Shown here piece after piece: positions 1,196 through 61,450 of a stretch of 64,000 nucleotides of DNA. The translations under genes were made by a program, and so were the position numbers. Source of the DNA: a phage; the sequence record PZ445437.1, one strand, 5' to 3'. Under the pieces are notes generated by a model that searched no databases, had not been told where the DNA came from, and was given only the letters and a program-made list of their open reading frames with translations. Numbering within the stretch: position 1 is the stretch's first letter; each line of letters opens with the position of its first letter.

Positions 1196-1207
1196 TAACT
1201 ATACCAC

Positions 1208-1360
1208 TCAATTAGTTGACTTTGTTATAATATCATCAGACGTTTGATTTGTAAACTGGTCTGTGTTATTTTCTTCAAAAATTTTTTCTACGAATTCTTT
1301 GAACGACTCACGTTCCTGAGCTACATTATGCTCGATTACCATTTCAAGATTATGACTCAT
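1208..1360 (-). CDS. Small hypothetical protein (50 aa)
   Basis: ATG overlaps the upstream stop (ATGA); acidic 50-aa ORF not in the track because it is under 60 aa. Confidence 0.3.
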   Translation of the reverse strand: MSHNLEMVIEHNVAQERESFKEFVEKIFEENNTDQFTNQTSDDIITKSTN

Positions 1361-3014: not shown

Positions 3015-3650
3015 TCACAGTTCAGATGCTACAGTGATTACAGCTTCAATGTTTTCTGCCGAGCGTTTAATGTCAAGATACACATTACCGTTTTTAGCGA
3101 TTTTACATGACATTCCGATATCAGTAAATTTCTGAATATGATGTTCCATCATTTTGTATCCAAAAATTCGCATATTTCCATTGTTGTTAATTTCAAAATT
3201 ACGAATTCCGTGAGTGCGTTTTTCTAAAATAGCGAGATAGTTACTGCGATAAGTTTCAACCTTTTTAAGAACAAATCCATTTTCATCTAAAAGTTTTAAC
3301 ATGAGGTCTTTATCTTCTTCCATATCGGAAGTAATCTCACGAGCTTTACGAGTTGCTCGTTTTTTCAGTAGTTCCGGAGCATTTTCCTGTGCGTATAAAG
3401 TTGCTGCATTTGAAATAATATCCTGAGCTTCACCTGTAATGATTAATCCATCACCAGATTTCTCCACCAGGCCTTTTTTAATCAATACCCCAATATTACT
3501 ATTAACTACTGCGTTACCTAAATCTGGATGCACCTCACGAACTTCTGCAGCTGTAATGAAATCTTTCTTAGCAATGGTAATTAAAATCGCAGCAGTTTTT
3601 TCATTCAGAACATCGTTAGAAGCTTTGATGATGTAAGTTACTTTAGACAT
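3015..3650 (-). CDS. motA: MotA middle-transcription activator
   Basis: 211 aa; MSKVTYIIKASNDVLNEKTAAILITIAKKDFITAAEVREVHPDLGNAVVNSNIGVLIKKGLVEKSGDGLIITGEA... matches my recollection of T4 MotA. Confidence 0.9.
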   Translation of the reverse strand: MSKVTYIIKASNDVLNEKTAAILITIAKKDFITAAEVREVHPDLGNAVVNSNIGVLIKKGLVEKSGDGLIITGEAQDIISNAATLYAQENAPELLKKRATRKAREITSDMEEDKDLMLKLLDENGFVLKKVETYRSNYLAILEKRTHGIRNFEINNNGNMRIFGYKMMEHHIQKFTDIGMSCKIAKNGNVYLDIKRSAENIEAVITVASEL

Positions 3651-3691
3651 TTTCTAATCTCCGTAATTCTGTATCAGTAGTTGATAGTTGT

Positions 3692-3721
3692 ATAGTACCA
3701 CAGTATGCTTTGGTTGTAAAC
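3692..3721 (-). promoter_or_regulatory. T4-type early promoter (-35 GTTTAC, -10 TACTAT) with A/T-rich UP region, upstream of motA
   Basis: Minus-strand reading gives GTTTAC, 18 nt, TACTAT, followed by conserved leader caactatcaactac..ggag; one copy of a repeated cassette. Confidence 0.5.
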
Positions 3722-3753
3722 CGTTTTGTGAAAAAAATTTTAAAATAAAAAAA

Positions 3754-3773
3754 GGGAGAGCCTCGGCTCTCCC
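3754..3773 (-). terminator. Rho-independent terminator hairpin (8-bp GC stem, tetraloop, U-tract)
   Basis: gggagagc-ctcg-gctctccc followed on the minus strand by a long U run. Confidence 0.55.
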
Positions 3774-5556: not shown

Positions 5557-5637
5557 TCACTGGCGTCCGAAGACGCCTTTAGTTTTAAGATTATTACGAT
5601 AGAACTGCATCACGTGTTCGTTGTGGAAATTACTCAT
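5557..5637 (-). CDS. stp: Stp peptide (26 aa; activator of host PrrC anticodon nuclease)
   Basis: Encodes [26 protein letters not shown], which matches my recollection of T4 Stp; sits between ndd and ac. Confidence 0.6.
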
Positions 5638-6805: not shown

Positions 6806-6833
6806 TTTCTGTTCCTCCGTAGTTGATAGGGTA

Positions 6834-6863
6834 ATAGTACCACGGAAGAACAGTCTTGTAAAC
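6834..6863 (-). promoter_or_regulatory. T4-type early promoter cassette
   Basis: GTTTAC, 18 nt, TACTAT and conserved leader on the minus strand. Confidence 0.45.
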
Positions 6864-7047
6864 AACTTTTTAAAAATATTCGTAATAAATGTGAATACCA
6901 ACTACTACCGCTGAAACCTGTGCAACCCACCACGCACAAGCAATAAGTACAGAATTCAAAATTTTCATAATAACCTCATCACAAAAGTAAATGTTAAACA
7001 AATTACTGGAATACTAATTAACCAAACAAAACACCACCATAATGAAC

Positions 7048-7311
7048 TCATAGTTCAATCTCAATGATTTCAAGATTATTTTCTTTAATAGCTTTCTTTA
7101 AATCATCGTAAATAAGAACTTCCCAAGAATTGTTTAAATCACCATTCAACAAACGCTCTTGTTGCAATTTATCAGTAAGATACGGTTGATCTGATTCATA
7201 TTTAGACAATCCCAATGAAATAAATGATGTTGCATCGTCAATTTCAGAATATTGTACATGAACAAATTCACCTGTGATTTTATGTTTAGCGTAATAAAAT
7301 TTAAATTTCAT
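7048..7311 (-). CDS. Hypothetical protein (87 aa)
   Basis: Start set at the internal ATG downstream of the promoter cassette and GGAGGA SD. Confidence 0.45.
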   Translation of the reverse strand: MKFKFYYAKHKITGEFVHVQYSEIDDATSFISLGLSKYESDQPYLTDKLQQERLLNGDLNNSWEVLIYDDLKKAIKENNLEIIEIEL

Positions 7312-7338
7312 TTTTACTCCTCCGTAGCTGATAGTTGT

Positions 7339-7368
7339 ATAGTACCACGGTCCTTGTGGTATGTAAAC
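7339..7368 (-). promoter_or_regulatory. T4-type early promoter cassette
   Basis: GTTTAC, 18 nt, TACTAT, leader caactatcagctacggagga. Confidence 0.5.
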
Positions 7369-7385
7369 CATTTTGTGAAATTTTT

Positions 7386-7943
7386 TTAAATGGAAAGATA
7401 CCATCCGTTGTAGTTGCTTTTTCTTACAACCTTACGAAGGTCTTCTCTGTCACCGATGAACTTCGGAGTGTACTGGATGACACCTGGATGAATTTCTTTA
7501 GTGTTGAATATAATTATACAGTCAGCGACTTGATGATTTAGAATGGGCCCTAGATTTATTCCAGAACCGTATGGATACTCTCCGCTGCATCCTGTTGTTA
7601 CAGAAATCCAACGTGAGTCAGTTTGGTGTGTCTTAACTTCTACACGAAGCCCGCAGTATCTTGGATGCGCCAATACATCCCATGCGTATGTATACGGGTC
7701 ATTAACATCTTCTTGACCTTTATTAACATATCCGCTTAGCCAATCTGCCACAAAAAACTCTGCGTACACAGCGATACGGCATCTTTCGATAACTTCTGCT
7801 TTATCCTGGTTCGGGTTTTGTTTTAAAGAGTATCTTGCTGTATCAGCAATTTTGACCTTCATTTCAGTAGTCAAGTCACTGTTCGATAGGGTAAATGTCG
7901 GAATCTGAAATAGTCTCTGTAAACCCGGATTCGTTTTCTGCAT
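7386..7943 (-). CDS. denB: DenB-like endonuclease IV
   Basis: 185 aa, the length of T4 DenB, between ndd and rIIB; RBS AAGGAA. Synteny and length only. Confidence 0.5.
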   Translation of the reverse strand: MQKTNPGLQRLFQIPTFTLSNSDLTTEMKVKIADTARYSLKQNPNQDKAEVIERCRIAVYAEFFVADWLSGYVNKGQEDVNDPYTYAWDVLAHPRYCGLRVEVKTHQTDSRWISVTTGCSGEYPYGSGINLGPILNHQVADCIIIFNTKEIHPGVIQYTPKFIGDREDLRKVVRKSNYNGWYLSI

Positions 7944-8466: not shown

Positions 8467-9405
8467 TTATTTAAATTGCTCAGTAACGTCTTCAACTACT
8501 TCGTATTGGCAAGTACGCATTTTAGCATCGTTGTAATCAATCGGAATTGATACTACATCACGCGGATGTACTTTAACTTTTACGACTCGGCTGGTTGAAC
8601 TGCCAAAGTGACGAATATAAGATTTAGAACACACATGCAGACCACGAGAACAAGTTTGTGTATCATCGTCATTCACACGAGTACGCGGCATTTTAACTAC
8701 TTTACCAGGACTGTTATCAAAGGTGTTTGAGTGACAGTCAAAGTAGTTGTCACGAACTACTTTCCAAGCATAGAAGTAACCATCTTCTGTAATTTCAATA
8801 TCGTTTGCTACCAAGAAATCAAAGAGTCGAGATACCGCTTTTTGGCTTGGGTTTTCCAACAGATTTTCCAAGAACGGAAAATAAAATTCAAAGTTTTCGC
8901 CTTTTTCCATCGAGTCAAGAATACGATCAACCAAACCAGACCGCAATTCAATATTTTGATAGAACAAGCTTCCACCTTCAATTCGAACATCGCCGGAAAT
9001 ATATTTTTCAACAGCACGACGAACATTAATTTTTTGTGCCGCTTCTTCCAGCTTATCTGCTACAAGCAGATTAAGAATTTCCTGGAAGTTTGAATGAGTA
9101 TTAGGAGTTGCGTTATAAGTTACACCGTCAACAGTAATTGAAATGAATTTTTTAGATGCATTCCAAATAATGTCAGATTTAGCAACTGGAGCAATAACTG
9201 CATCGCTATTAACTTTAATTGTAATATCACCGCTAATAGTAACTTTAGAGCGTTTAGCTTCTTCAGCATTTTTCAAAACACGACGAATTGTGTCAACCGA
9301 TACACCTTGCCAATCAGCCAATTCCTGTTGGGTGTAATTACCACTTGAATACAGCTTAACAATTTCAGCTTGTTCGTTTTTGGTCAGGCATTTAATATTG
9401 TACAT
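8467..9405 (-). CDS. rIIB: rIIB
   Basis: 312 aa, the length of T4 rIIB, immediately downstream of rIIA. Confidence 0.8.
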   Translation of the reverse strand: MYNIKCLTKNEQAEIVKLYSSGNYTQQELADWQGVSVDTIRRVLKNAEEAKRSKVTISGDITIKVNSDAVIAPVAKSDIIWNASKKFISITVDGVTYNATPNTHSNFQEILNLLVADKLEEAAQKINVRRAVEKYISGDVRIEGGSLFYQNIELRSGLVDRILDSMEKGENFEFYFPFLENLLENPSQKAVSRLFDFLVANDIEITEDGYFYAWKVVRDNYFDCHSNTFDNSPGKVVKMPRTRVNDDDTQTCSRGLHVCSKSYIRHFGSSTSRVVKVKVHPRDVVSIPIDYNDAKMRTCQYEVVEDVTEQFK

Positions 9406-11604: not shown

Positions 11605-11808
11605 TTAATTCATATTACGCTTAATAACTTCAGCAACTTCTAGTAGTTCATCTTTAGTTGCGGTGTCGGATTGAATTTTATCTCTAATATCTTTAAAGCG
11701 GTTTTTAAATTCTTCGGCTTCTCCCATATCGAAAAAGCGTTGAATGATTCTATATTCTCGATGAACTGCTTTATCAAAAAGCTCTAAATTTACTTTATAT
11801 GATTTCAT
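11605..11808 (-). CDS. Hypothetical protein (67 aa, rIIA.1 position)
   Basis: ORF between gene 39 and rIIA; charged helical protein. Confidence 0.5.
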
Positions 11809-11862
11809 TTCAATATCCTCATTTGCCCAATTAATTATACCACATCCTTGTGGTAAAGTAAA

Positions 11863-13683
11863 CTACTGGCTCATCCATTCTTTACGAAGGTCAGCATTAT
11901 CTCCCATGAGCATTTCAAAAAGCTCTTTCCAGTTCTCAGGAAGTTTAACAACATCATATACTGGGTTTTGAATCATCTCACGATATTCAGATTTTTCCAA
12001 AGAGCCAAGTCCCTTAATATAACGGATGCTATGTTTAGGTAGAGCATCTTTGGCACTCTCATATTCAGCGACTGTATAAAACCATTCTTGTTTTTTACCG
12101 ACCTGAGCGATGATTACAGGAGTTTTGACAAAGCGAATTCGTCCTTGCTCAAACAATTCTGGCCAATTACTAAAAAACCCGAGCAGAGAAGGATAAATGC
12201 TTCCTAGACCATCATGGTCAGCATCAGTCATAATAGCAATATTATGATAATTCAAGTTTTCAGCTTTTTCACCAAGAACTAATCCAGTGATTGCGCAAAT
12301 ATCAAATAGTTCTTTATTTTTAAGCATATCAGCATATGACATACCCCAACTGTTGAGAACTTTACCACGCAATGGATAACCACCATGAAGTTCTTTATCA
12401 CGAACATCAATAAGATATCCGATAGCAGAATCACCCTCAGTCAAGAAAAGAGTAGTATCAGCATCTTTACCGCAAAGATTCGCTTTGATATGTTTATGAA
12501 CCTTAGCTTTAGAAGCCTTTTTAGCTGCTTTAGTTTCTGCTGCTTTTTCTGCCGCCAATTTACGAGCCAAAGCAGCTTCAATAATCGGCATTAGAATTGC
12601 TTCATTATTTAGAATAGCACGTGAAATCTTTTTAGCATCAAGTTGAATATGACTACGGATTTCACCAAATGGAGAAGTCAAACGCTCTTTAGTTTGAGAA
12701 TCAAATCGCATGTTTTTCATATCACGGACAAACATAACGATAGTCAAACATTCTTTGACACGTGCTTTAGTTACATCAATTTTGAACTTACGTTTGATTT
12801 GTGGAATAAGGTCTTCACAAATATCATCCATAACACAGTCAATGTGATGGCCACCATTCTTAGTATGAATGTTATTGACGTATGTTAATTGACGAAAACC
12901 ATCTGGTGAACGACCAACCGCAATAGAACAATTTTCTTGTTCTTGAACGATAGCATGTTCATCATACTGTCGTGCGTATTTCTTAAAATTACCCTGAACC
13001 TTTTTACCATTAAAGGTAAATTGAATATCAGGATAAACAACAGCAAGTGTCTGGAGACGATCCAGTGTAATGTCAAGATAAACTTGGGACAGCTCATTAG
13101 TTTCAAATGACATAAAATCTGGAATGAAAGTAACACGAGTTCCTTTCCATTTTCCAGGAATAGTTTCCCAGGATTTATTTTCCATGCCATTTGAACAACG
13201 AACTACAATATTATTTTGACCATCGCCAGTTTCACCGACAAACATCACAGAAAAAATGTTAGTTAAACTAGAACCAACACCATTCATACCACCGGTGACA
13301 CGTTCTTTATCATCACCAAAGTTACCACCCGCTTTTGGAATAGTCCAAGCAGCAACTGGACCAGGAATTTCTTCACCGGTAGGTGTTTTAACCATCGCTT
13401 GTGGAATACCACGACCGTTATCTTCAACTGTTACTTGATTGTTTTTGATAGTAACATTAATTTTATTTGCGAATTTAAACTTAGTACGAATACCTTCATC
13501 TACTGAGTTATCGATAATTTCATCAATAAGCTTAACAAGACCAGGTACATACTGAACACTTTCCCATTTACCAAACAGAAAGCGCTCATGCATTTCATTA
13601 GCAGAAGAGCCAATATACATGCCGCTACGCTTTTTGATATGTTCAATATCGCTCAGAATTTTAATTTCATTCTTAATCATCAC
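11863..13683 (-). CDS. 39: DNA topoisomerase II large subunit gp39 (GyrB-like), unsplit (gene 60 portion fused)
   Basis: 606 aa continuous ORF; GHKL ATPase motifs (EIIDNSVDEG, DNGRGIP, GGMNGVGSS) plus TOPRIM (LTEGDSA, DADHDG). Confidence 0.9.
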   Translation of the reverse strand: MMIKNEIKILSDIEHIKKRSGMYIGSSANEMHERFLFGKWESVQYVPGLVKLIDEIIDNSVDEGIRTKFKFANKINVTIKNNQVTVEDNGRGIPQAMVKTPTGEEIPGPVAAWTIPKAGGNFGDDKERVTGGMNGVGSSLTNIFSVMFVGETGDGQNNIVVRCSNGMENKSWETIPGKWKGTRVTFIPDFMSFETNELSQVYLDITLDRLQTLAVVYPDIQFTFNGKKVQGNFKKYARQYDEHAIVQEQENCSIAVGRSPDGFRQLTYVNNIHTKNGGHHIDCVMDDICEDLIPQIKRKFKIDVTKARVKECLTIVMFVRDMKNMRFDSQTKERLTSPFGEIRSHIQLDAKKISRAILNNEAILMPIIEAALARKLAAEKAAETKAAKKASKAKVHKHIKANLCGKDADTTLFLTEGDSAIGYLIDVRDKELHGGYPLRGKVLNSWGMSYADMLKNKELFDICAITGLVLGEKAENLNYHNIAIMTDADHDGLGSIYPSLLGFFSNWPELFEQGRIRFVKTPVIIAQVGKKQEWFYTVAEYESAKDALPKHSIRYIKGLGSLEKSEYREMIQNPVYDVVKLPENWKELFEMLMGDNADLRKEWMSQ

Positions 13684-15222: not shown

Positions 15223-15504
15223 TTAATTGAACAGTGGAGCGATGCGTTTCAGAAGAGTAGCAGCACCTTTAGCGAATTTTACATCATGAAAAACAGTTTC
15301 TTCTTCCGTTACAACACGAGCTTTAATGTTTTCACAATCCCAATTTTTGCGAACAATCTTCAAAAGCTGCAGTAAATCTTTACATTCAGCAATATCGATA
15401 ACACATCCACGAGAATCTTCCATTATCGCACGATAACCGTAAGCCATACCATAATCATTGAAAGATTGCTCGATGATAATTAAATTTTCCATTTTATTCT
15501 CCAA
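15223..15504 (-). CDS. Hypothetical protein (93 aa)
   Basis: ORF preceded by a variant promoter cassette. Confidence 0.45.
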   Translation of the reverse strand: MENKMENLIIIEQSFNDYGMAYGYRAIMEDSRGCVIDIAECKDLLQLLKIVRKNWDCENIKARVVTEEETVFHDVKFAKGAATLLKRIAPLFN

Positions 15505-15589
15505 GTTGTTTTCTGTATCAGTAGTTGATATTGATATAGTACCATAATCAACTACTGATGTATATAGTTTTATGAAAAAATTTTAAACT

Positions 15590-17115: not shown

Positions 17116-17178
17116 TTTATTATCCTCAGTAGCTATGGTGTTATAATACCACAACTAACCGAGGAAGTAAACAACTTT

Positions 17179-17862
17179 TTATCGTTTTGTTGGAAGAGAT
17201 AGAGGATCGCACTCTTCCTCTGACGGAGCATCTTCAAGACCCATAGCATAGCGCAAAGCATACTTCATCATCAGGATGTCTTTCGCACAGTCATGAATAG
17301 AATCATGTGCAACGAATCCATCTAAAGTTCCCTTTGGAAGAGGACATGTGGTCATATCACGAACAAGCAGAAGTGCTTCAATTCTGGTACGAATATCACG
17401 CTGATTCCAGAATTTACAAGGTTCTAACTTAAACGTATCAAGCTCATTCTCGGAAACGCCGTTAAGACGTTGAATATCGCGAATGAGATCGACTAAAATT
17501 GGAAAATCAAACGACATTCCACGGCACCAACCTTGAGATTTCCAAGGATCGATATTATGTGCATTGATGTAATCATTAAATTTTGCAATACCATCGATAG
17601 TGCTTACATCTTCATCGGATGGTGCAATATTTTTTCGAGCTTCAGGAGACTGATTTTTCCACCATTCGATAGTGCTTTTAGTAAAAAGACGGTGTCCTTT
17701 TTGACTTTTTAAGTCAAATTTAATTTTAATGCCACGTGAAACTAATTCATCAAATGTTTCAACGACTTCTGGATTAGGGTCAAAAGCAATTACAGCCAAA
17801 TCAATAACAGCTGCTTTTTCACCGCTTCCCATTGTTTCAAAATCTATAATAAAATCAAACAT
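17179..17862 (-). CDS. dexA: Exonuclease A (DnaQ-like 3'-5' exonuclease)
   Basis: 227 aa, the length of T4 DexA; DEDDh-type exonuclease motifs (FDFETMG... HDSIHDC). Confidence 0.8.
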   Translation of the reverse strand: MFDFIIDFETMGSGEKAAVIDLAVIAFDPNPEVVETFDELVSRGIKIKFDLKSQKGHRLFTKSTIEWWKNQSPEARKNIAPSDEDVSTIDGIAKFNDYINAHNIDPWKSQGWCRGMSFDFPILVDLIRDIQRLNGVSENELDTFKLEPCKFWNQRDIRTRIEALLLVRDMTTCPLPKGTLDGFVAHDSIHDCAKDILMMKYALRYAMGLEDAPSEEECDPLSLPTKR

Positions 17863-21093: not shown

Positions 21094-21696
21094 TTATAGA
21101 TTAAATCCTTCAAAATCAAGAGTATAGATAGTGTATGTTGAATACTTTTTGTATTCATATCTATCTGCAATTCTAAATACACTTCCAGCTGGTATCATTA
21201 CTTCTTGTTCATCTGAAACTAATTCCATATTACGATAACGATGACTATCCGGAAACTTAAAGTTTGGATTGTATTCTTTACAGCGCAGAGCTTTTATAGC
21301 ATACTCCTGGAAATTGAATACCATAGGAGCTTTGAATTCAAAAATAACCTGTGTGTTATACTCTAAACCAGAAGCAAAATGTAGAGCTATATTTTTATCA
21401 TATGAAGCTGATACGACTTTATCAAATGTAATAATATCAATTCCTTGATTTAACACCTGCTTAGTCTCAGCTGGAACACCTCTCCAAAGAGGTTTATCGT
21501 TTGGAACCAAACGAGATTTGATTATTTCATTTAACCAAGTATGGTCATCTGGCTTATTAGTAATACAATGAATTAAAAGTTCAATTTCAGATAAATTAAA
21601 CCCTTCAGAAAGCAATTCTTCACGAATAGAAGCACGCACCGATGCATCCATTGATTTTATTTTAAAATCTTTTAGTTGCATTACTGAGTATTTCAT
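21094..21696 (-). CDS. modA: ModA-like ADP-ribosyltransferase
   Basis: 200 aa, the length of T4 ModA; R-S-E ART triad candidates (WRG, SAS, EQEVMIP). Confidence 0.6.
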   Translation of the reverse strand: MKYSVMQLKDFKIKSMDASVRASIREELLSEGFNLSEIELLIHCITNKPDDHTWLNEIIKSRLVPNDKPLWRGVPAETKQVLNQGIDIITFDKVVSASYDKNIALHFASGLEYNTQVIFEFKAPMVFNFQEYAIKALRCKEYNPNFKFPDSHRYRNMELVSDEQEVMIPAGSVFRIADRYEYKKYSTYTIYTLDFEGFNL

Positions 21697-22316
21697 TCAA
21701 CTACCTCAATATCATAAACTTTAAATGTTCCAAATGAATCGTGTAATTTTTCTTTTGAAATAGAAGTTATTTTATACTTTCCAATTGGAATCATCCATTC
21801 TTGTTCATGCACAATCATCATTAAGTTATCAGTACGCTCTGAATCTAATCCATCAGTATCTTCATATGTATACTTAAACTCAGTATTAGGAGAAGAAAGT
21901 ATAATATCGCTGATATGGTCAGAATAATTAAAAGCTTTATCAGTTTTTAAACGAAGTATTGTTTCAGTGAAATATTCAGCATAAGAAAAAGAACACGCTG
22001 TGTGTAAACTAGTAGTAAATGAATCTACCCTGTTCGTTGAAAACACTTCTCCAACCTGTAAATCTTTAATAAGTTCTTTTGTCGATTTTGATATACCACG
22101 ATATAATTGATAAGGCGATTTAGTTAAATGCTTTTTAATGATTTTATTCAACTGTCTGTGAAGAGCTTCATTCTTTTTGGCTTCCATACATTGCCAAAGA
22201 ACAGACTGCTCGAAGTCAGTAAATTTTTCACAGACTTTTTTATACATATCATATTGAAAATCAACGCTTTCAGCTTTTATAGATAACTGTTCAACATCTG
22301 CAGGATTAATAATCAT
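21693..22316 (-). CDS. modB: ModB-like ADP-ribosyltransferase
   Basis: 207 aa, the length of T4 ModB; paralog of the previous gene (YRG, STN, HEQEWMIP). Confidence 0.6.
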   Translation of the reverse strand: MIINPADVEQLSIKAESVDFQYDMYKKVCEKFTDFEQSVLWQCMEAKKNEALHRQLNKIIKKHLTKSPYQLYRGISKSTKELIKDLQVGEVFSTNRVDSFTTSLHTACSFSYAEYFTETILRLKTDKAFNYSDHISDIILSSPNTEFKYTYEDTDGLDSERTDNLMMIVHEQEWMIPIGKYKITSISKEKLHDSFGTFKVYDIEVVE

Positions 22317-22383
22317 GATAGCCTCCGTATACTTCAGAAGCTATCATATCATCGTTAGAAAGGAAAGTAAACAACTTTTTGAA

Positions 22384-22566
22384 TTATTTTGCCCAGGGAG
22401 CCCAAGGCGGAGGGTCAAGATGGTATGAAGCTAGTTCTTCTAGAAGAGCATCTGGGGCTTCAATTCCATAATTCTGTAATACTATACGGTATTCTTTCTT
22501 ATAATCACTAGAATCATTCTGGATATTCGTAGAATGATTATCTTCTAACATCTCAAATAAATCCAT
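22384..22566 (-). CDS. Hypothetical protein (60 aa)
   Basis: ORF. Confidence 0.4.
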   Translation of the reverse strand: MDLFEMLEDNHSTNIQNDSSDYKKEYRIVLQNYGIEAPDALLEELASYHLDPPPWAPWAK

Positions 22567-24209: not shown

Positions 24210-24416
24210 TTACAAAAAGCCTCTTTTGAATTCGACTTGCTTTTCGCCATAATCATATCGAATCTCTGCATTAAATTCGACAGAACCATCTGCGTACATC
24301 ATAAATGAATGCACAACAACTTCTGTAGACCATGGCTGTAGTTCATATTTCTTCATTACATGCCGTGAAATGATAATATCTAAATCTTCATTTGGTTTAA
24401 TCCAGCGATTTAACAT
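24210..24416 (-). CDS. Hypothetical protein (68 aa)
   Basis: ORF with SD GGAGAG downstream of a promoter cassette. Confidence 0.45.
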   Translation of the reverse strand: MLNRWIKPNEDLDIIISRHVMKKYELQPWSTEVVVHSFMMYADGSVEFNAEIRYDYGEKQVEFKRGFL

Positions 24417-24485
24417 AGTGCTCTCCTCTATAAGATAATTCTATTATACCATACTCATTTTGGAAAGTAAACCATTTAAATGAAA

Positions 24486-24507
24486 AAGGACTCCCGAAGG
24501 AGTCCTT
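24486..24507 (-). terminator. Rho-independent terminator after soc
   Basis: aaggactcc-cgaa-ggagtcctt with U-tract on the minus transcript. Confidence 0.55.
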
Positions 24508-25677: not shown

Positions 25678-25748
25678 TATTTTTCCTTTCAATTCATGGG
25701 TTAGTAGATTAATTATACAATAAATATATAAAGCAATAAGGAGGACAT

Positions 25749-27511: not shown

Positions 27512-27805
27512 TTACTCACCTACCACTTCAGCGATGATATTTTTATTATTAAAGTTTTTATCACAATACAGAACATAATTATACTGCATTACACCACCAG
27601 ACTTAAGCTGTTTTTGCACTTCAGCTTTCATTTCAGGGCGATCGCGCTCAACGATATTCATAATATCTGCTTCAATTTGAGTTTCAACCTCAGTCTGATC
27701 TGCCGTCATAGACCATTCGCACAAATCTTTATCATAACCTGCCATAGCAGGCTGAGCAGCACAAGAAGCTAAAGCAAAAATTGCGGCAAAGATAAATTTT
27801 TTCAT
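27512..27805 (-). CDS. sp: Spackle periplasmic protein
   Basis: 97 aa, the length of T4 Sp; cleavable signal peptide MKKFIFAAIFALASCAAQPAMA. Confidence 0.7.
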   Translation of the reverse strand: MKKFIFAAIFALASCAAQPAMAGYDKDLCEWSMTADQTEVETQIEADIMNIVERDRPEMKAEVQKQLKSGGVMQYNYVLYCDKNFNNKNIIAEVVGE

Positions 27806-27865
27806 GATAATCTCCTCAGTAGTTTATGTTTATATAGTATCTCAATTTCCAACAAAAGTAAACAG

Positions 27866-28123
27866 TTATTTTAAAACTTCTGCGTAATCACATGTTACAA
27901 ACTGTTTCTCTAGCTTGACGATTTTACGAAAGTATCTTTTACATTGACGAATCTGCCTCTTCGTAGGGCGAACAGCAAACTTAATAAATTCCACTCGACC
28001 AAATGGAGGGCTTTCTTCTGCTGGAATATCTAACACCAATTCCCACGTATCTGCAATAAGTGCTTTGAATTGCGTATTTTTCCTGACGTTATACGGAGTA
28101 GGTTTAAATAAAACAATATGCAT
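27866..28123 (-). CDS. Hypothetical protein (85 aa, 61.4 position)
   Basis: ORF adjacent to dmd. Confidence 0.45.
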   Translation of the reverse strand: MHIVLFKPTPYNVRKNTQFKALIADTWELVLDIPAEESPPFGRVEFIKFAVRPTKRQIRQCKRYFRKIVKLEKQFVTCDYAEVLK

Positions 28124-33783: not shown

Positions 33784-34035
33784 TTAAAACTTAACAAATA
33801 ACTTTAAAGCATCTTCAGTTTTAATTCCTTTTCTTACACCCATAACAGAAATTGGCTGTGACTGAAATTTTCCTTTACCATTATAAATTTCTAATCCAGT
33901 AACCATTCCATTTTGTTCTATAATACCGTAAGTGTTACCTTCATTTTCAAATTCTTTAACTTTAAAGAGTTTATTAGCTTTTTCTGCGTTAACAACTTTT
34001 AAATTTTGAATAAAATTAGTTTGAATATTTTTCAT
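33784..34035 (-). CDS. Hypothetical protein (83 aa)
   Basis: ORF with GGAGGA SD downstream of a promoter cassette. Confidence 0.5.
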   Translation of the reverse strand: MKNIQTNFIQNLKVVNAEKANKLFKVKEFENEGNTYGIIEQNGMVTGLEIYNGKGKFQSQPISVMGVRKGIKTEDALKLFVKF

Positions 34036-34063
34036 TTTGTGTTCCTCCGTAGTTGATAGTTGT

Positions 34064-34093
34064 ATAGTACCATGGAAGAACAGTCTTGTAAAC
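34064..34093 (-). promoter_or_regulatory. T4-type early promoter cassette
   Basis: GTTTAC, 18 nt, TACTAT, leader caactatcaactacggaggaac; near-identical to the copy at 57814..57843. Confidence 0.55.
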
Positions 34094-34180
34094 AGTTTTG
34101 TGAAATTTTTTTAGGGAATTCTAAAGGTCCAGAATCATCTGTTTTTCATAAGTATAGATTTATATTACTTGTATGAAAAA

Positions 34181-48466: not shown

Positions 48467-48760
48467 TCAGCTGTAACGATAACACTCGTTTGATTTACGT
48501 TTAGCAACTCGTTGAGAAGTATTATAATCAAAATCATCGTCAATGTAAACTGATTTTTTCAACTTTCTTACTTCACCACGTAATTGGCGATTTAGCTCAT
48601 CTTTAACTTCTGAATCAATACCTTTCATTCTACGCCATTTATCTGAGCGAAAAATGTTTTCAACCATATCTTTATGACTTACCCCATCAGGAGCTTTACG
48701 CTTTCCGAAATAGTCATAATCACGCACTTTTAAGTCTTTACGACGATACGTTTTACCCAT
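48467..48760 (-). CDS. Hypothetical basic protein (about 97 aa)
   Basis: Start at the internal ATG; Lys/Arg-rich. Confidence 0.4.
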   Translation of the reverse strand: MGKTYRRKDLKVRDYDYFGKRKAPDGVSHKDMVENIFRSDKWRRMKGIDSEVKDELNRQLRGEVRKLKKSVYIDDDFDYNTSQRVAKRKSNECYRYS

Positions 48761-48935
48761 GGAGTTTAATTTCCTTAGCAACTGAACTAAATGCAGCACG
48801 ATCGCAAATCATGCGTTTATGTAACTTGAGTATAATATAGCAAACTTCAAAACTATTTACATGAGTAACACGAACAGCATTACCATTAATGAGATAATAC
48901 TGTCCCTTTTTAATTTCTTTATCAACCATAACCAT
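48753..48935 (-). CDS. Hypothetical protein (60 aa)
   Basis: SD GAGGA; downstream of a promoter cassette. Confidence 0.45.
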   Translation of the reverse strand: MVMVDKEIKKGQYYLINGNAVRVTHVNSFEVCYIILKLHKRMICDRAAFSSVAKEIKLHG

Positions 48936-49093
48936 ATCAATTCCTCAAAGGTAATTCATATGTTAATAATACCACGGTTTGAACTTGTTGTAAACAACTT
49001 TGTGAAAAATATTTCAGGGAATGATAAGAAAGGAACGATAGCTTAGAATGGTAATATACAGAATGTAAGAAAGAAAGGCCCAGAGGGCCCATC

Positions 49094-50033: not shown

Positions 50034-50504
50034 TTAATCATGTGTCCACACCCCATCGGTATTTGACCAAAGTCGCTGATTATCTGATCCTCGCCACAGC
50101 TTTTTAGTCGGAAGATTTTTCTCATACTTCCCATCAATAATAACATCAACATATTTAAGCATTTCTAGTTGTTTAATATCTTCAAACTTATATCCTGTCC
50201 ACAACCAAATGCTTTTATTGGGATAAAGATTTTTAATAGTTTGAACCACAGAGTGAATCACGTCTCTGTTATCAGGATAAAGAGGGTCACCTCCGGTTAT
50301 AGTCAATCCTTCTATATAATCATTATTCAAACATTCAATTAATTGTTCTAGTGTTTCACCAGTGAATGGAACACCATTTCTAGCATTCCATGTTGATTTA
50401 TTATAACACCCTTCGCATTTATGCAAACAACCTGTAACGAAAAGAACTGTCCTGCATCCAGGACCATTAACAAAGCAGCACGGGTATATTCTGTCATAAT
50501 TCAT
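50034..50504 (-). CDS. nrdG: Anaerobic ribonucleotide reductase activase NrdG (radical SAM)
   Basis: 156 aa, the length of T4 NrdG; Cys cluster CLHKCEGC. Confidence 0.88.
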   Translation of the reverse strand: MNYDRIYPCCFVNGPGCRTVLFVTGCLHKCEGCYNKSTWNARNGVPFTGETLEQLIECLNNDYIEGLTITGGDPLYPDNRDVIHSVVQTIKNLYPNKSIWLWTGYKFEDIKQLEMLKYVDVIIDGKYEKNLPTKKLWRGSDNQRLWSNTDGVWTHD

Positions 50505-51333
50505 TTATATATTTCCAATTATAGCCTTCAACACTTTTACGTTCGCCATTTAAACATTTTAAAATATTTCCTTTGCTAGAAATATTAAAATATTTTGCTG
50601 CGTCTGGTATATAATTAAATGTTTTTAAAAGAACACCATCTTTATATGCGCCAAATAAATTAAGAGTATATTTTTCTCGAAGACGCTGATGTTTCCTTTT
50701 CATAACCTCAGGATTTGCATACGCCAACTTCAATGAATTTCTGTGTTTTTCTTTTACTTCAGGTTTTTGCATTGCTAACTTAGTTAGCCTGGAAATTTTA
50801 TTTCTAACTTCGTCAGTTTTCATTGCATTTGACAAATTTAATAAAGTTTTATTTCTAACTTCAGGTTTTTGCATTGCTAGCTTAGTTAGTTCTCTATGTC
50901 TTTTTCTAAAATCGTCATCCTTCCATATATTTTTCGATAATTTTGACATAGAGCGGTGAAATAATTCCTTTTCACTGGAATACAATTTAAAAATTTCATC
51001 CAATTCATCCGCATTAAATCTATCGGTATTCGAGTTTATCATTCTATGAAAGGCATAACACATTTTACTATTGCTTGTTTTAGCTAAATAGTAATGAGCT
51101 AACGCATGGTCATAATATGACAAATTAACAATATTCCATTTATCTGTTTTATATTCAGGAAATATAGATTTGGGAAGCACGTGATGTGCTTCCGTTTTTC
51201 CTTTTATTTTAGGATTATTATAATTTTTTGTTATCAAATCAACATATGACAATAGTAAATCATTATTTTCTTCAAATATTAAAGATAATTTATCATTCAC
51301 AAAATCGCAAGGATAAAATCTATCATAATTCAT
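50494..51333 (-). mobile_element. mobE: HNH homing endonuclease gene (MobE-like) inserted between nrdD and nrdG
   Basis: 279 aa with HNH motif (EAHHVLPKS...NIVNLSYYDHALAH); position matches T4 mobE; first 14 codons nearly duplicate the nrdG 5' end. Confidence 0.7.
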
Positions 51334-53147
51334 TGGTGTTTAACCCTATGCATGATTTCTTTATTTTTACCGAGATTAAATCCGCGTTCGTTCGGATTTC
51401 CCAAATAACCACATGTTCTTCTTATTGTGTTCATCTTTTTAGGATCAGTTTCTCCACAAATAGAACAAACAAATCCGTTTTCAGTAGGAGTCATTTCATG
51501 GGTACTTCCACATGTAAAACATTTATCTACTGGCATATTAACACCAAAATAATCTAAATGTTGTGCAGCATAATCCCATACGGCCTCAAGACCCTTTAAG
51601 TTATTTTTCATATCAGGAAGTTCAACATAAGAAATGTGACCACCTGTCGCAATGAAATGATATGGCGCTTCACGAGAAATCTTTTCAAACGGAGTAATAT
51701 TTTCTTCTACTGAAACGTGGAAACTGTTAGTGTACCAGCCTTTATCGGTAACATCTTTTACACTTCCATATTTTTCTGTATCAAGTTTACAGAAGCGATA
51801 ACAAAGGTTTTCAGCAGGAGTAGAATACAAACTAAAAGCAAACCCAGTTCTTTCAGTCCACTGTTTAAGACGAGCATTCATTTTAGTTAAAATTTCTCGT
51901 CCAATATCACGACCTACAAGAATATTCAATTCGTGAATACCAATGTATCCTAGAGACACTGAACTTCTGCCATTTTTAAATAACTCAATTATATCGTCAT
52001 CAGGTTTAAGACGAACCCCGAATGCACCTTCTTGGTAAAGAATAGGAGCAACAGTTGCTTTAACTCCTTTTAAGGAACTAATTCTACACATCAAAGCTTC
52101 AAAACACAAATCCATTCGCTCATTGAACAATTCGATAAATTTCTGTTCATTGAACTGTGTTCCAATATAAGAATCTAATGCGATACGAGGAAGATTCAGT
52201 GTTACAACACCAAGATTATTACGTCCATCAAGAATTTCATTACCAGTCGAATCTTTCCATACGCTCAAGAAACTACGGCAACCCATCGGAGAAACAGGAA
52301 CAGATGAACCAGTGATAGCTTTATTGTTCTTAGCTGAAATAATATCAGGATACATCCTTTTGCTTGCGCACTCTAGAGCAAGCTGTTTAATATCATAGTT
52401 CGGATCGTCTTTATAAAGATTAACACCTTCTTCAACAAACATAACAAGCTTAGGGAAAATAGGAGTTATCCCATCACGACCAAGACCTTTAATACGATTT
52501 TTCAGAATTGCTTTCTGAATCATTCGTTCAGTCCAGTCAGTTCCCGTACCAAATGTAATTGTTACAAAAGGCGTTTGTCCGTTTGAACTAAAGAGAGTAT
52601 TTACTTCATATTCATAAGCTTGGAATGCATCGTATACATCTTTTTCTGTTTTAGATTGAGCATAATTCAGTGCATCGGCGATTTGCCATTTTTCTGCATC
52701 CTCAATATGTTTTGCATAGGTGCGTTTAACATAAGGAGAAAGTACTTTATCTACATTAGCAAAAGTCGTTCCGCCGTATTGATGGGAAGCAACCTGTGCA
52801 GTAATTTGTGCCATAATTGCAGTAGCAACTCCAATTGATTTAGGAGTTTCAATCTGCGCATTACCAAGCTTAAATCCGTTCTCAAGCATTCCTTTTAAAT
52901 CTACTAAACAGCAATTAGTAAAAGGCAATGATATACTGTAATCTAAATCATGAAAATGAATTAATCCAACATTATGGGCATTTACAATATGACTTGGAAG
53001 AATACGACAAGCGATATGTTTAGAAACAATACCGGCCATTAAATCTCTTTTTGTTGGAAAGACGCGAGAATCTTTGTTGGCGTTTTCTGTATTTAATTCT
53101 TTATCTTTATTTGAAATAAAATTTAAAACATCTTTTTCTAAAGACAT
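51330..53147 (-). CDS. nrdD: Anaerobic ribonucleotide reductase NrdD (glycyl radical enzyme), uninterrupted
   Basis: 605 aa, the length of T4 NrdD; C-terminal glycyl-radical motif RRTCGYLG; no intron. Confidence 0.92.
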   Translation of the reverse strand: MSLEKDVLNFISNKDKELNTENANKDSRVFPTKRDLMAGIVSKHIACRILPSHIVNAHNVGLIHFHDLDYSISLPFTNCCLVDLKGMLENGFKLGNAQIETPKSIGVATAIMAQITAQVASHQYGGTTFANVDKVLSPYVKRTYAKHIEDAEKWQIADALNYAQSKTEKDVYDAFQAYEYEVNTLFSSNGQTPFVTITFGTGTDWTERMIQKAILKNRIKGLGRDGITPIFPKLVMFVEEGVNLYKDDPNYDIKQLALECASKRMYPDIISAKNNKAITGSSVPVSPMGCRSFLSVWKDSTGNEILDGRNNLGVVTLNLPRIALDSYIGTQFNEQKFIELFNERMDLCFEALMCRISSLKGVKATVAPILYQEGAFGVRLKPDDDIIELFKNGRSSVSLGYIGIHELNILVGRDIGREILTKMNARLKQWTERTGFAFSLYSTPAENLCYRFCKLDTEKYGSVKDVTDKGWYTNSFHVSVEENITPFEKISREAPYHFIATGGHISYVELPDMKNNLKGLEAVWDYAAQHLDYFGVNMPVDKCFTCGSTHEMTPTENGFVCSICGETDPKKMNTIRRTCGYLGNPNERGFNLGKNKEIMHRVKHQ

Positions 53148-53959
53148 AATTCTAATTTATCCTTTTGAAATTCTTCGTCTAAATATGGGTTCCAACCCAT
53201 TTTAAACCTTTTGATGAAATTATCAATTCTAAATTTCGGTAAGTTTAAATCCGCAAAAATAGATGATTTACTTTTAAAATCTGGACTTAAATAATCATAT
53301 AAAATTTCTGCGTATTTTAACCATAATATACAAGTACCAGATTTAATTGCTCTCGGAGTTTTCCAAGGTTTTACACCATACATCGGATTTCCGCTTCCTT
53401 TATGCCTGATAGAAGATGAAATTCCAATTTTAATTTTAGCTTCCTTTGTATGCGAAAATCCACGATGTGGATTTTCTTTCCAGTATTTTTTAGAAGCTTC
53501 TGATATTTTCTTTCTGGCTAAATTAGTATGATGCTTTCCATAAAATCCATGATTTTTGCCTTTATTACGATTTCTTTTAATCATGGTTATTGATTGCTTT
53601 TCTCTAGTTTCTTTAGAAGGAGAAATACCATATGTCGTAAATTTGCCATCAGCATATGCTAAATTAAAATACTCTTTATTCCATACATCTTTTTCTATAT
53701 TCTTTTGAAATTCAGCTTCAATGCTAGTTATTTGTTCATCTCCGACTAATTGAAAATATAATATTTCAACTTTCGGCGTTTCTTTCAATAAGGCTTTTTG
53801 AAATTCGGAAGATGACGAAGACGAATAATAAAATTTACCATTTTTATCAATAATATTCGTTCCATCAAAAGTGCAATTGGTTTTACTTCCAATGTAATAA
53901 TATGGTGGGGTTTTAGCATTAATTCTATTAATAAATGATAGTTTATATACTACATTCAT
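53138..53959 (-). mobile_element. GIY-YIG-type homing endonuclease-like gene (Seg-like, 273 aa)
   Basis: N-terminal VYKLSFINRINAKTPPYYYIGSKTN (GIY-YIG-like) and NUMOD-like repeats (GKNHGFYGKHHT, HRGFSHTKEAKIKIG, GSGNPMYG); 3' end overlaps the nrdD start. Confidence 0.55.
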
Positions 53960-57202: not shown

Positions 57203-57257
57203 ATTCTTCTCACTTGGTTAATGGTTTATACTCCGAGCCATCCTTGGTATAAAGCGG

Positions 57258-57785
57258 TTATGCGAGTACCGTCTTTAACCGTTCTTCAAACTTCCGAAGA
57301 GTATTCTGGCGTTCAGCTCTTTGCTTTTTGTAAGTTTCAATACGCTCTGAAATGAGAGTGTATCGTTCATTTACTGATTCTTTCATAAAATCAGGAATTT
57401 CACGAGAAGCTTTAATCTCATCAAATTTATCAATAACAGCTTGCTCTTCAGCAATTAAGTTATCATACATCAAAATATCTTTCTTGATGAACTCAATATC
57501 TTCTTGAGTTACACGAGATAATTTAGATGCTTTATCCTTTTTGTACTGTTCGTTAGTATCACGAGACCAGTGTAATGTACGATTTTTATTCGTATTCTTG
57601 TAAATTTCTACAATACCAATCTCATCGATAATAACGATCCAATTCCAACGAGATTTGTAAATTTGTCCTCCGTCAACCGTGATTTCACCTCCGATTGAGA
57701 TGTCATTAAAGAACTTGCTTTGTGCTTCTGATTTAAATTTACCATCGTTGTAATTTACCAGGTTGAAAATATCTTTAGCGTTCAT
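57258..57785 (-). CDS. Hypothetical protein (175 aa)
   Basis: ORF with GGAGGA SD downstream of a promoter cassette. Confidence 0.5.
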   Translation of the reverse strand: MNAKDIFNLVNYNDGKFKSEAQSKFFNDISIGGEITVDGGQIYKSRWNWIVIIDEIGIVEIYKNTNKNRTLHWSRDTNEQYKKDKASKLSRVTQEDIEFIKKDILMYDNLIAEEQAVIDKFDEIKASREIPDFMKESVNERYTLISERIETYKKQRAERQNTLRKFEERLKTVLA

Positions 57786-57813
57786 TTTGTGTTCCTCCGT
57801 AGTTGATAGTTGT

Positions 57814-57843
57814 ATAGTACCACAAAGGAACAGTCTTGTAAAC
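57814..57843 (-). promoter_or_regulatory. T4-type early promoter cassette
   Basis: Near-identical copy of the 34064..34093 cassette (GTTTAC, 18 nt, TACTAT, conserved leader). Confidence 0.55.
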
Positions 57844-57845
57844 CA

Positions 57846-58160
57846 CTAAAAGAAACTTCTTTCACAATTTTTTCCACTGAACCACGCGCTCACCGCTTTC
57901 TTAGTCTCAGGAGCAGTGTTATCCATAAACCATTCAAAGGCAGCCTTTTTATGATTCTGGAGGGCTTCTCGGGCTTTAATCTGCTCACGGTCTATTAACA
58001 CTAACATATGAGCCTTTCTTGTCACCATGGGCTTCTTATGATTTTTTGAATACTCCCAATCATTTGTCCATCGCATCGTTGTTGCGAACTGAAATACTGC
58101 TTCTTTAATTTTAGTTTCGTAAATTTCACGAGCCTTTGAGTATAACATCACTACCTCCAT
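57846..58160 (-). CDS. Hypothetical protein (104 aa)
   Basis: ORF. Confidence 0.45.
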   Translation of the reverse strand: MEVVMLYSKAREIYETKIKEAVFQFATTMRWTNDWEYSKNHKKPMVTRKAHMLVLIDREQIKAREALQNHKKAAFEWFMDNTAPETKKAVSAWFSGKNCERSFF

Positions 58161-59218: not shown

Positions 59219-59275
59219 TTTATTCTCCTTTGATTTGATAGGACTACTATAACATAGTCCTATCAGTTTGTATAC

Positions 59276-59476
59276 TTATTTTGACATTTCTTCGATGTCA
59301 CGACGATACCCGTCACGAACTTCACGAAGAGCTTCAAGGCCACACATAGGCTCGATACCTGTAATGTGAACTTGATTAATCTGATACTCTACATCTTCTA
59401 ACTGAGCGAAAACATAACGACGTTCAGCTGCACAACCAGATTTAGCTTTACCGAAACGTTTATTCAAAGTAGTCAT
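59276..59476 (-). CDS. Hypothetical protein (66 aa)
   Basis: ORF. Confidence 0.4.
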   Translation of the reverse strand: MTTLNKRFGKAKSGCAAERRYVFAQLEDVEYQINQVHITGIEPMCGLEALREVRDGYRRDIEEMSK

Positions 59477-59574
59477 TTTGTATCTCCAATTTACTCATTT
59501 GTTTTGATAGGTCTATAGTATCAACAACTACAGACCATGTAAACCGTTTTGTGAAAAATTTTTGAAATAAAAAA

Positions 59575-59592
59575 GGGAGCCCGAAGGCTCCC
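59575..59592 (-). terminator. Rho-independent terminator hairpin
   Basis: gggagcc-cgaa-ggctccc followed by a U-tract on the minus transcript. Confidence 0.55.
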
Positions 59593-61069: not shown

Positions 61070-61360
61070 TTATCCTTTCATTGAAGGCGTAACAGTTGTT
61101 AAATACTTAATCATAGCTTCAGCTTCTGATTTTGATAATGAAATTTCTCCATTGTTTTGACGAATAGAAATAAAATCCGGATGACGGTCACCACCAGCTT
61201 TTAAAACACACATATAAGTATCAACTTCATCACACATATTATAACGTTTCTTAAGAAGTTCTACAAGTTCTTCACTAGTAACTTCATCCATGTCGACGAA
61301 AAAATCACCATTAATGATGACGTAGATATTTCCTTCTTGATTGAGTGCTTCAATTTTCAT
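61070..61360 (-). CDS. Hypothetical protein (about 96 aa)
   Basis: Start placed at the internal ATG downstream of the promoter cassette. Confidence 0.45.
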
Positions 61361-61388
61361 GATGTTCTCCTCTTTATCTGATAGTTGT

Positions 61389-61418
61389 ATAGTACCACAG
61401 CTCAAACGGAAAGTAAAC
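61389..61418 (-). promoter_or_regulatory. T4-type early promoter cassette
   Basis: GTTTAC, 18 nt, TACTAT. Confidence 0.5.
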
Positions 61419-61434
61419 CGGTAAAATGAAAAAA

Positions 61435-61450
61435 GTCTCCCGAAGGAGAC
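61435..61450 (-). terminator. Terminator hairpin
   Basis: gtctcc-cgaa-ggagac with U-tract. Confidence 0.5.

Follow-up and report, generated by a model that had tools for sequence, protein, structure and literature searches.

Introduction

It is textbook knowledge that, only seconds after infection, the early promoters of T4-type phages capture the RNA polymerase of the host. Their organization into UP, -35 GTTTAC, TGn and -10 elements was reportedly described by Liebig and Rueger in 1989 and by Miller and co-workers in 2003, and Tuerk and co-workers are said to have found, in 1988, C(UUCG)G tetraloop hairpins in the intercistronic regions of T4. The UP/-35/TGn/-10 organization with GTTTAC as the -35 hexamer is likewise given by Hinton (2010; PMC2988021) and Nolan et al. 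(2006; PMC1524935). The RegB endoribonuclease of T4 cuts the GGAG within the translation initiation regions of early genes, with GGAGRAYARAA as the consensus of its strong sites (PMC3014915).

A closely related system is that of the promoter-early stem-loop (PeSL) cassettes of T4-like phages (Arbiol et al., 2010, PMC2839356; Comeau et al., 2014, PMC4122927). For RB49/phi1, the PeSL model is backed by experiments on promoters, terminators and mini-circles (PMC2839356), and it was extended to the T4/PST pair with the consensus TTTACW-N17-TAYWAT and with the ndd.4/.5 locus included (PMC4122927). The presence of a stem-loop is also variable in the published PST/T4 set (PMC4122927).

Here, we describe 15 copies of a 60-80-bp element, the well-known strong early promoter of T4-like coliphages together with its leader and ribosome-binding site, in a 64,000-nucleotide stretch of phage DNA from record PZ445437.1, hereafter referred to as the window. 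The feature is real, ordinary and already known; a role in the shuffling of accessory genes, proposed in papers of 2010 and 2014, is only partly supported in the window. The copies are useful for annotating the genome and do not amount to a discovery; what we add is a modest test whose control is sobering, in that breakpoints among five relatives were as frequent at other gene junctions as at those with a cassette.

Genome setting and comparison panel

The window is a segment of a Tequatrovirus (T4-like) genome that extends from asiA/motA by way of rIIB-rIIA and gene 43 as far as nrdC, rI and tk, and its position 9417 corresponds to position 1 in conventionally numbered T4-like genomes. On the T4 map the gene order is t/asiA/motA/52/ndd/denB/rIIB to rIIA, 39, dexA, dda, modA/B, 56, 61 and 41, followed by uvsX, 42, 43, 45, 46, 47, 55, nrdD, 49 and the nrdC.x genes to rI and tk, with the minus strand being the transcribed strand for nearly the whole window. 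The region around the element that had been flagged for study, designated P(nrdC.8), matched approximately 730 phage records, mostly Tequatrovirus of Escherichia and Shigella, at 95-99% identity. For comparison, the homologous regions of T4, slur02, LYE-01, SP21535 and AndreasVesalius were scanned in the same manner as the window. Promoter features are not annotated in the T4 records NC_000866 and AF158101; therefore, a direct transfer of promoters from T4 was impossible.

Copy number and enrichment

A first-pass annotation had described a repeated element, GTTTAC...TACTAT plus a conserved leader, 5' of minus-strand ORFs, and a search of the window confirmed it. The pattern GTTTAC-N16-19-TACTAT gave eight matches where 0.05 were expected, all with N18 spacing and on the minus strand, and none of 100 shuffles reached eight. 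The -10 together with the leader core, GGTACTATACAACTATCA, matched seven times at up to three mismatches (0.05 expected), and the leader as originally written, CAACTATCAACTACGGAGGA, four times (0.00 expected). The seven copies listed at that time (3660-3721, 6811-6863, 7316-7368, 24417-24470, 34021-34093, 57781-57843 and 61361-61418) were all present on the minus strand. Inclusion of the -10 variants TATAAT, TATTAT and TATGAT and of one -35 variant brought the set to 15 copies, every one of them on the minus strand (Table 1; copies are named by the position of the G of the -35). A profile built from these copies and run over both strands of the window detected no additional strong one. In an unbiased repeat search of the window, the cassettes emerged as the largest direct-repeat families (D1-D3). 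A scan with the generic sigma-70 consensus yielded 89 versus 76.6±9.7, i.e., no enrichment in this A/T-rich window, so only the T4-specific pattern is informative.

Table 1. Cassette copies in the window, from high to low coordinates.
Copy	Span	Strand	-35 to -10	Gene context	Remarks
61418	61361..61450	-	61418-61389	mobD.5-like ORF 61070-61360	UUCG-tetraloop terminator 61435-61450
59544	59477..59592	-	59544-59515	66-aa accessory ORF 59276-59476	UUCG terminator 59575-59592
	59231..59275	-		between 66-aa ORF and nrdC.10	degenerate second cassette, TATACA-N17-TATAGT; profile E=3.1, weak
57843	57781..57865	-	GTTTAC 57843-57838; TACTAT 57819-57814	P(nrdC.8), the flagged cassette; ATG at 57785	predicted +1 A ~57807; leader ATCAACTACGGAGGAACACAAA; present in 5/5 relatives
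48995	48936..49017	-	48995-48966	5' of 55.6 homologue (48753-48935)	-10 TATTAT
34093	34036..34115	-	34093-34064	3' of gene 43; 83-aa ORF (33784-34035), then imm.1	
27863	27806..27885	-	27863-27834	5' of sp (27512-27805)	no TGn
24472	24417..24505	-	24472-24443	5' of mrh.2 (24210-24416)	-10 TATAAT; UUCG terminator 24488-24505
22372	22317..22392	-	22372-22343	5' of modB (21693-22316)	-10 TATGAT
17172	17116..17191	-	17172-17143	between dexA and motB.2	-10 TATTAT
15565	15493..15587	-	15565-15536	5' of 89-aa ORF (15223-15492)	-35 variant ATATAC
11863	11809..11883	-	11863-11834	5' of rIIA.1 (11605-11808)	-10 TATAAT
7368	7312..7390	-	7368-7339	3' of denB; 87-aa ORF (7048-7311)	87-aa ORF missing from T4
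6863	6806..6885	-	6863-6834	between ndd.5 and ndd.4	
3721	3651..3773	-	3721-3692	5' of motA (3015-3650)	GC-rich terminator 3754-3773; long leader
1256	1196..1277	-	1256-1227	5' of asiA (923-1195)	-10 TATTAT

The copies differ in how closely they resemble one another. Near-identity over about 65 bp, which had been claimed for two pairs, was seen between copies 34093 and 57843 (59/63 identical from the -35 to ATGAA; 94% is the highest identity among the copies), and copy 6863 is close to this pair (55-57/63), but the claim did not hold for 61418 versus 57843 (45/63).

Sequence anatomy of the cassettes

Alignment of the 15 copies in register gave the consensus aAaaa..TTtcA.aaA...GTTTACat..c.........gTGgTAcTATA.aa.tATcAa.Ta..ga.g. 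The -35 reads GTTTAC, the hexamer of T4 early promoters (TTTAC[A/T]), in all copies except 15565, and lies exactly 18 nt from the -10 hexamer TA(C/T)(T/A/G)AT in 15/15; the 17-nt sigma-70 hexamer spacer and the -10 TAnnnT of T4 early promoters are thus present throughout. The -10 is TACTAT at nine of the sites. An extended -10 (TGn) was found in 14 copies, with AGA in its place in copy 27863. The 24 nt upstream of the -35 average 74% A+T, versus 66% for the window, and share the consensus aAaaa..TTtcA.aaA; overall this amounts to an UP-like region, with only 58% A+T in two of the copies.

Downstream, a minus-strand ORF starts 26-44 nt past the -10 in every case, and, as in PeSLs, each element has an SD and a start codon at its 3' end. 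Among the cassette genes, 11/15 have GGAG no more than 18 nt from the start, versus 10/113 of the other genes (p=1.4e-7). The usual geometry places the predicted +1 at the A of ATCAACTAC, some 7 nt past the -10; the "conserved leader" would then cover the discriminator together with the initial nucleotides of a very short 5' UTR. The strong-site consensus of RegB is matched exactly by GGAGAATAAAA at copy 15565, the long leader of which ends in ...ACTGATACAGAAAACAACTTGGAGAATAAAATG, and by the nrdC.10 ribosome-binding site; judging from these motifs, RegB may cleave the cassette leaders in this phage. The earlier reading of the element as early promoter, leader and SD is strongly supported, as it agrees with the published T4 consensus anatomy (PMC2988021, PMC1524935), with the orthologous sites in T4 and with the annotation of OL960580, the record of a relative.

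Conservation among T4 relatives

Nearly every cassette was found at the same mapped position in T4, slur02, LYE-01, SP21535 and AndreasVesalius, 5' of early genes and co-oriented with them, indicating that the copies are first of all stable orthologous promoters. The positions shared with T4 early promoters are those of asiA, motA, ndd.4, denB/ndd.6, rIIA.1, motB.2, modB, mrh.2, imm.1, 55.6, nrdC.8, nrdC.10 and mobD.5. In addition to position, the hexamers, their spacing, the TGn motif, the A/T-rich upstream region and the orientation are the same. Nothing essential differs; the differences are confined to some spacers and leaders (the 59544 allele, the 34093 leader) and to a preference for TACTAT as the -10 in the window. 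The homologous sites in OL960580, including that of P(nrdC.8), are annotated as "similar to phage T4 early promoter", and rho-independent terminators are annotated just upstream of two of its early-promoter sites.

P(nrdC.8) sits between nrdC.9 (57846-58160) and nrdC.8 (57258-57785), with its A/T-rich upstream region overlapping the last codons of nrdC.9. In the Mosigvirus APCEc01 this promoter is retained as GTTTAC, TATTAT and the leader AGACCTATCAACTAC, with a diverged spacer. The nrdC.9 C-terminus, WFSGKN.E.SFF* (window 57846-57890), is kept in APCEc01 as well, where the nrdC.9 protein is only 35% identical. The overlap of this conserved 3' end with the region upstream of P(nrdC.8) suggests a dual constraint. 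A homology break approximately 40 bp upstream of P(nrdC.8) in Mosigvirus was considered as a gene-content breakpoint and rejected, given that it is a step in divergence, with nrdC.9 35% identical.

Terminator hairpins

Many of the cassettes had been said to be paired with a GC tetraloop hairpin. This was overstated: a GC-rich tetraloop hairpin with a T-run lies directly upstream of four copies (61418, 59544, 24472 and 3721), and the other 11 are without one. Three of the four hairpins, those of 61418, 59544 and 24472, have a CUUCGG loop on a GC stem followed by a T-run and are of the C(UUCG)G type long known from the intercistronic regions of T4. Approximately ten more GC-stem CUUCGG hairpins, many of which read GGGCTTCGGCCC in the minus-strand RNA, occur at gene ends away from cassettes, with their loops at 5567, 8229, 8458, 13739, 30090, 36971, 39168, 44479, 45749 and 48118. 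Because they are not beside any cassette, these stem-loops form a separate, second repeat family, which was recovered as D4/D6 in the unbiased repeat search.

Gene-content differences and the breakpoint test

The cassettes had been proposed to be portable and to act as substrates for recombination, with breakpoints of gene content coinciding with them. Chained blastn comparisons of the window with the five relatives (gaps of at least 40 bp; indel events counted without phylogeny) gave 84 events, which fell into 69 distinct boundary clusters. Seven of these clusters lie inside cassette zones, which make up 3.2% of the window (binomial p=0.006 versus a uniform null), and two more lie 8 bp from such zones; about 87% of the clusters are outside cassettes. 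Gene junctions are the fairer null, and against them there was no excess: indel boundaries were found at 6/15 cassette junctions and at 39/113 other gene junctions (Fisher p=0.44, permutation p=0.44). At P(nrdC.8) itself there was no indel in any of the five relatives. The outcome of the proposed breakpoint test is thus mixed, and the notion of a portable cassette is supported only at a subset of loci (27863, 59544, 34093 and 7368).

The four loci show gene gain, loss or swap of the PeSL type. At 27863, LYE-01 has a cassette-ORF-cassette arrangement where the window has a single cassette, with the boundaries in the A/T-rich region and at the -35. At 59544, the window and AndreasVesalius carry the terminator, the cassette, the 66-aa ORF, the degenerate cassette and then nrdC.10, so that the intact and the degenerate copy together constitute a cassette-ORF-cassette arrangement; in T4, slur02 and LYE-01, from which the 66-aa ORF is missing, the terminator and cassette directly precede nrdC.10, and the allele of SP21535, a third one, comes with a promoter variant not shared by the others. 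The architecture at 27863 (LYE-01) and at 59544/59274 fits a cassette-to-cassette deletion or insertion of an ORF. The promoter-proximal slot at 34093 has three states, being empty in T4, LYE-01 and SP21535 and occupied by the 83-aa ORF in the window, while slur02 and AndreasVesalius have another ORF there, of 78 aa; on the 5' side, the crossover is in the leader, right after CAACTA(C). At 7368, the corresponding slot holds 0, 1 or 2 ORFs, again with the crossover in the leader.

The 34093 copy is chimeric, combining a spacer of the T4 imm.1 type with a leader identical to that of P(nrdC.8), and the spacer of copy 6863 is identical to its own at 14/14 positions. Within the 6863/34093/57843 subfamily the spacers, a region without any consensus requirement, are 79-100% identical, which argues for common descent or gene conversion and not for convergence alone. 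In T4, the cassette 3' of denB (8490-8593, upstream of ndd.6) carries the leader of imm.1 and its first four codons (ATGAAAATCGCT), joined to the terminal codons of the ORF of 87 aa seen in the window (7030-7375). Judged from this junction, the fusion looks like a trace of ectopic exchange in which one arm was the cassette and the other a short microhomology.

Several large differences were not mediated by cassettes, namely those at 57211-57247, 61211-61232 and 15284/15483 and the inserts of the homing-endonuclease or intron type. Compared with all five relatives, the window lacks nrdC.4-nrdC.7 (approximately 3.4 kb at 57211-57247), a gap not bounded by any cassette, and 1.6-2.1 kb of the mobD region at 61211-61232. 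The latter gap has a junction overlap of approximately 20 nt inside an ORF and yields a fused ORF, 61070-61360, the C-terminal part of which matches Pfam T4_y05I_C. Two boundaries were considered as cassette-associated and rejected: that at 61211-61232, inside an ORF and 130-180 bp from the 61389-61418 cassette, and that at 15483, which belongs to a 6-bp microhomology deletion (15284/15483) inside an ORF.

Interpretation and alternatives

We consider it about 90% probable that each element is a sigma-70-dependent, T4-like early promoter with a short leader and a ribosome-binding site, which occasionally serves as a homology arm for recombination. Host RNA polymerase would recognize the A/T-rich UP-like region, the -35 GTTTAC, the TGn and the -10 TAnnnT; the leader, of approximately 20-40 nt, would end in a GGAG-type SD and present a target for RegB in the switch-off of early mRNA. 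The four copies that directly follow an intrinsic terminator are the composite terminator/promoter units published as PeSLs. With 30-80 bp of near-identical sequence in common, the copies can act as one or both homology arms for phage recombination; a promoter-adjacent ORF would thereby be gained, lost or swapped from time to time and some copies homogenized, with the majority remaining as stable orthologous promoters.

Likeness to the PeSLs extends to the order of parts (an A/T-rich region and the early promoter, then SD and ATG, with a terminator stem-loop in front of some copies), to the fit of the PST/T4 consensus, to the ndd.4/.5 locus, which corresponds to the 6863/7368 pair here, and apparently to distribution: the cassettes seem to be concentrated in variable regions, some flank ORF indels, and none lies between 34.1 and 48.9 kb, the replication-gene core. 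The window differs from the PeSL description in having a stem-loop at only 4/15 copies and in showing no enrichment of indels at cassettes over gene junctions in the five-genome panel. The morons of lambdoid phages are similar in that accessory ORFs come with their own promoter and are sometimes insulated by a terminator; in contrast to morons, the cassettes have a genome-like G+C and promoters of the phage's own early class, and exchange appears to proceed via cassette homology and not via illegitimate insertion (PMC1524935).

How much of this calls for recombination can be debated, since the elements might be promoters only, their similarity reflecting selection for RNA-polymerase binding and translation and the indels falling at gene boundaries where they are tolerated. 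Positional orthology across the five relatives, the lack of indel enrichment over other gene junctions and the fact that, between genera, P(nrdC.8) keeps its consensus elements and leader core while the spacer diverges all agree with this account. We nevertheless find it doubtful, as promoter function leaves the spacer-identical subfamilies unexplained, as well as the chimeric 34093 cassette, with its T4 imm.1-type spacer and P(nrdC.8) leader, and the cassette-ORF-cassette versus single-cassette indels at 27863 and 59544; moreover, PeSL recombination mini-circles were demonstrated experimentally in RB49/phi1 (PMC2839356). At the other extreme, an autonomous or non-autonomous MITE- or IS-like element transposing together with ORFs was rejected as highly improbable. 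A multi-copy family with members up to 94% identical might be taken for one, and some ORFs do come equipped with a cassette of their own (examples are 59544 and the insert of LYE-01 and SP21535 at 25717-25738), but the cassettes have neither terminal inverted repeats, nor target-site duplications, nor an associated transposase. Their single orientation is fixed relative to the downstream ORF, their positions are orthologous across relatives, and the indel boundaries vary in place, lying in the UP region, the -35 or the leader, as would be expected of homologous exchange.

The assignment to the early class was also weighed against MotA-dependent middle promoters, which share the -10 TAnnnT and the extended -10 and would be plausible in a window containing motA and asiA. 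The GTTTAC -35 at 17-nt spacing contradicts such an assignment, a MotA box TGCTT centred at -30 was not found (PMC2988021, PMC1524935), and OL960580, in which the two classes are annotated separately, labels these sites as early; this possibility was likewise rejected, as there is hardly any room left for it. A further element within the leader deserves mention. The invariant core of most copies, CTATCAACTAC, comprises the near-tandem heptads CAACTAT-CAACTAC from -5 to +9 and is kept in the Mosigvirus orthologue despite the diverged spacer. That it might be a site for a phage factor directing promoter-proximal ORF insertion, recombination or early-promoter shut-off strikes us as a long shot, and an early promoter that doubles at times as a homology arm is the reading that we retain.

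Other differences in gene content

Additional differences from the relatives were observed elsewhere in the window. A segment of 868 bp between nrdD and gene 49 (53087-53956) is missing from 5/5 relatives; the product of the minus-strand ORF at 53138-53959, 273 aa in length, contains a NUMOD3 motif (E=6e-7), on account of which it is probably a free-standing homing endonuclease. Between nrdG and nrdD, in the mobC position, a 279-aa ORF (50494-51333, minus strand) that is replaced or absent in the relatives gave NUMOD1/I-HmuI-like matches that were weak and below threshold; it, too, is probably a homing endonuclease.

At 25717-25738 the window is empty, LYE-01 and SP21535 have approximately 1.4 kb, including an ORF with its own early-promoter cassette, and the T4 insert, of 899 bp, has the coordinates annotated for the dam methylase gene; since that insert is missing, the phage appears to be without dam. 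At 12198-12263, a 1.1-kb insert in T4 coincides with the annotated mobA/gene 60. The window has one 606-aa ORF here (11863-13683), and the topoisomerase genes 60 and 39 therefore appear to be fused; a "gp60plus39" fusion is annotated in several relatives.
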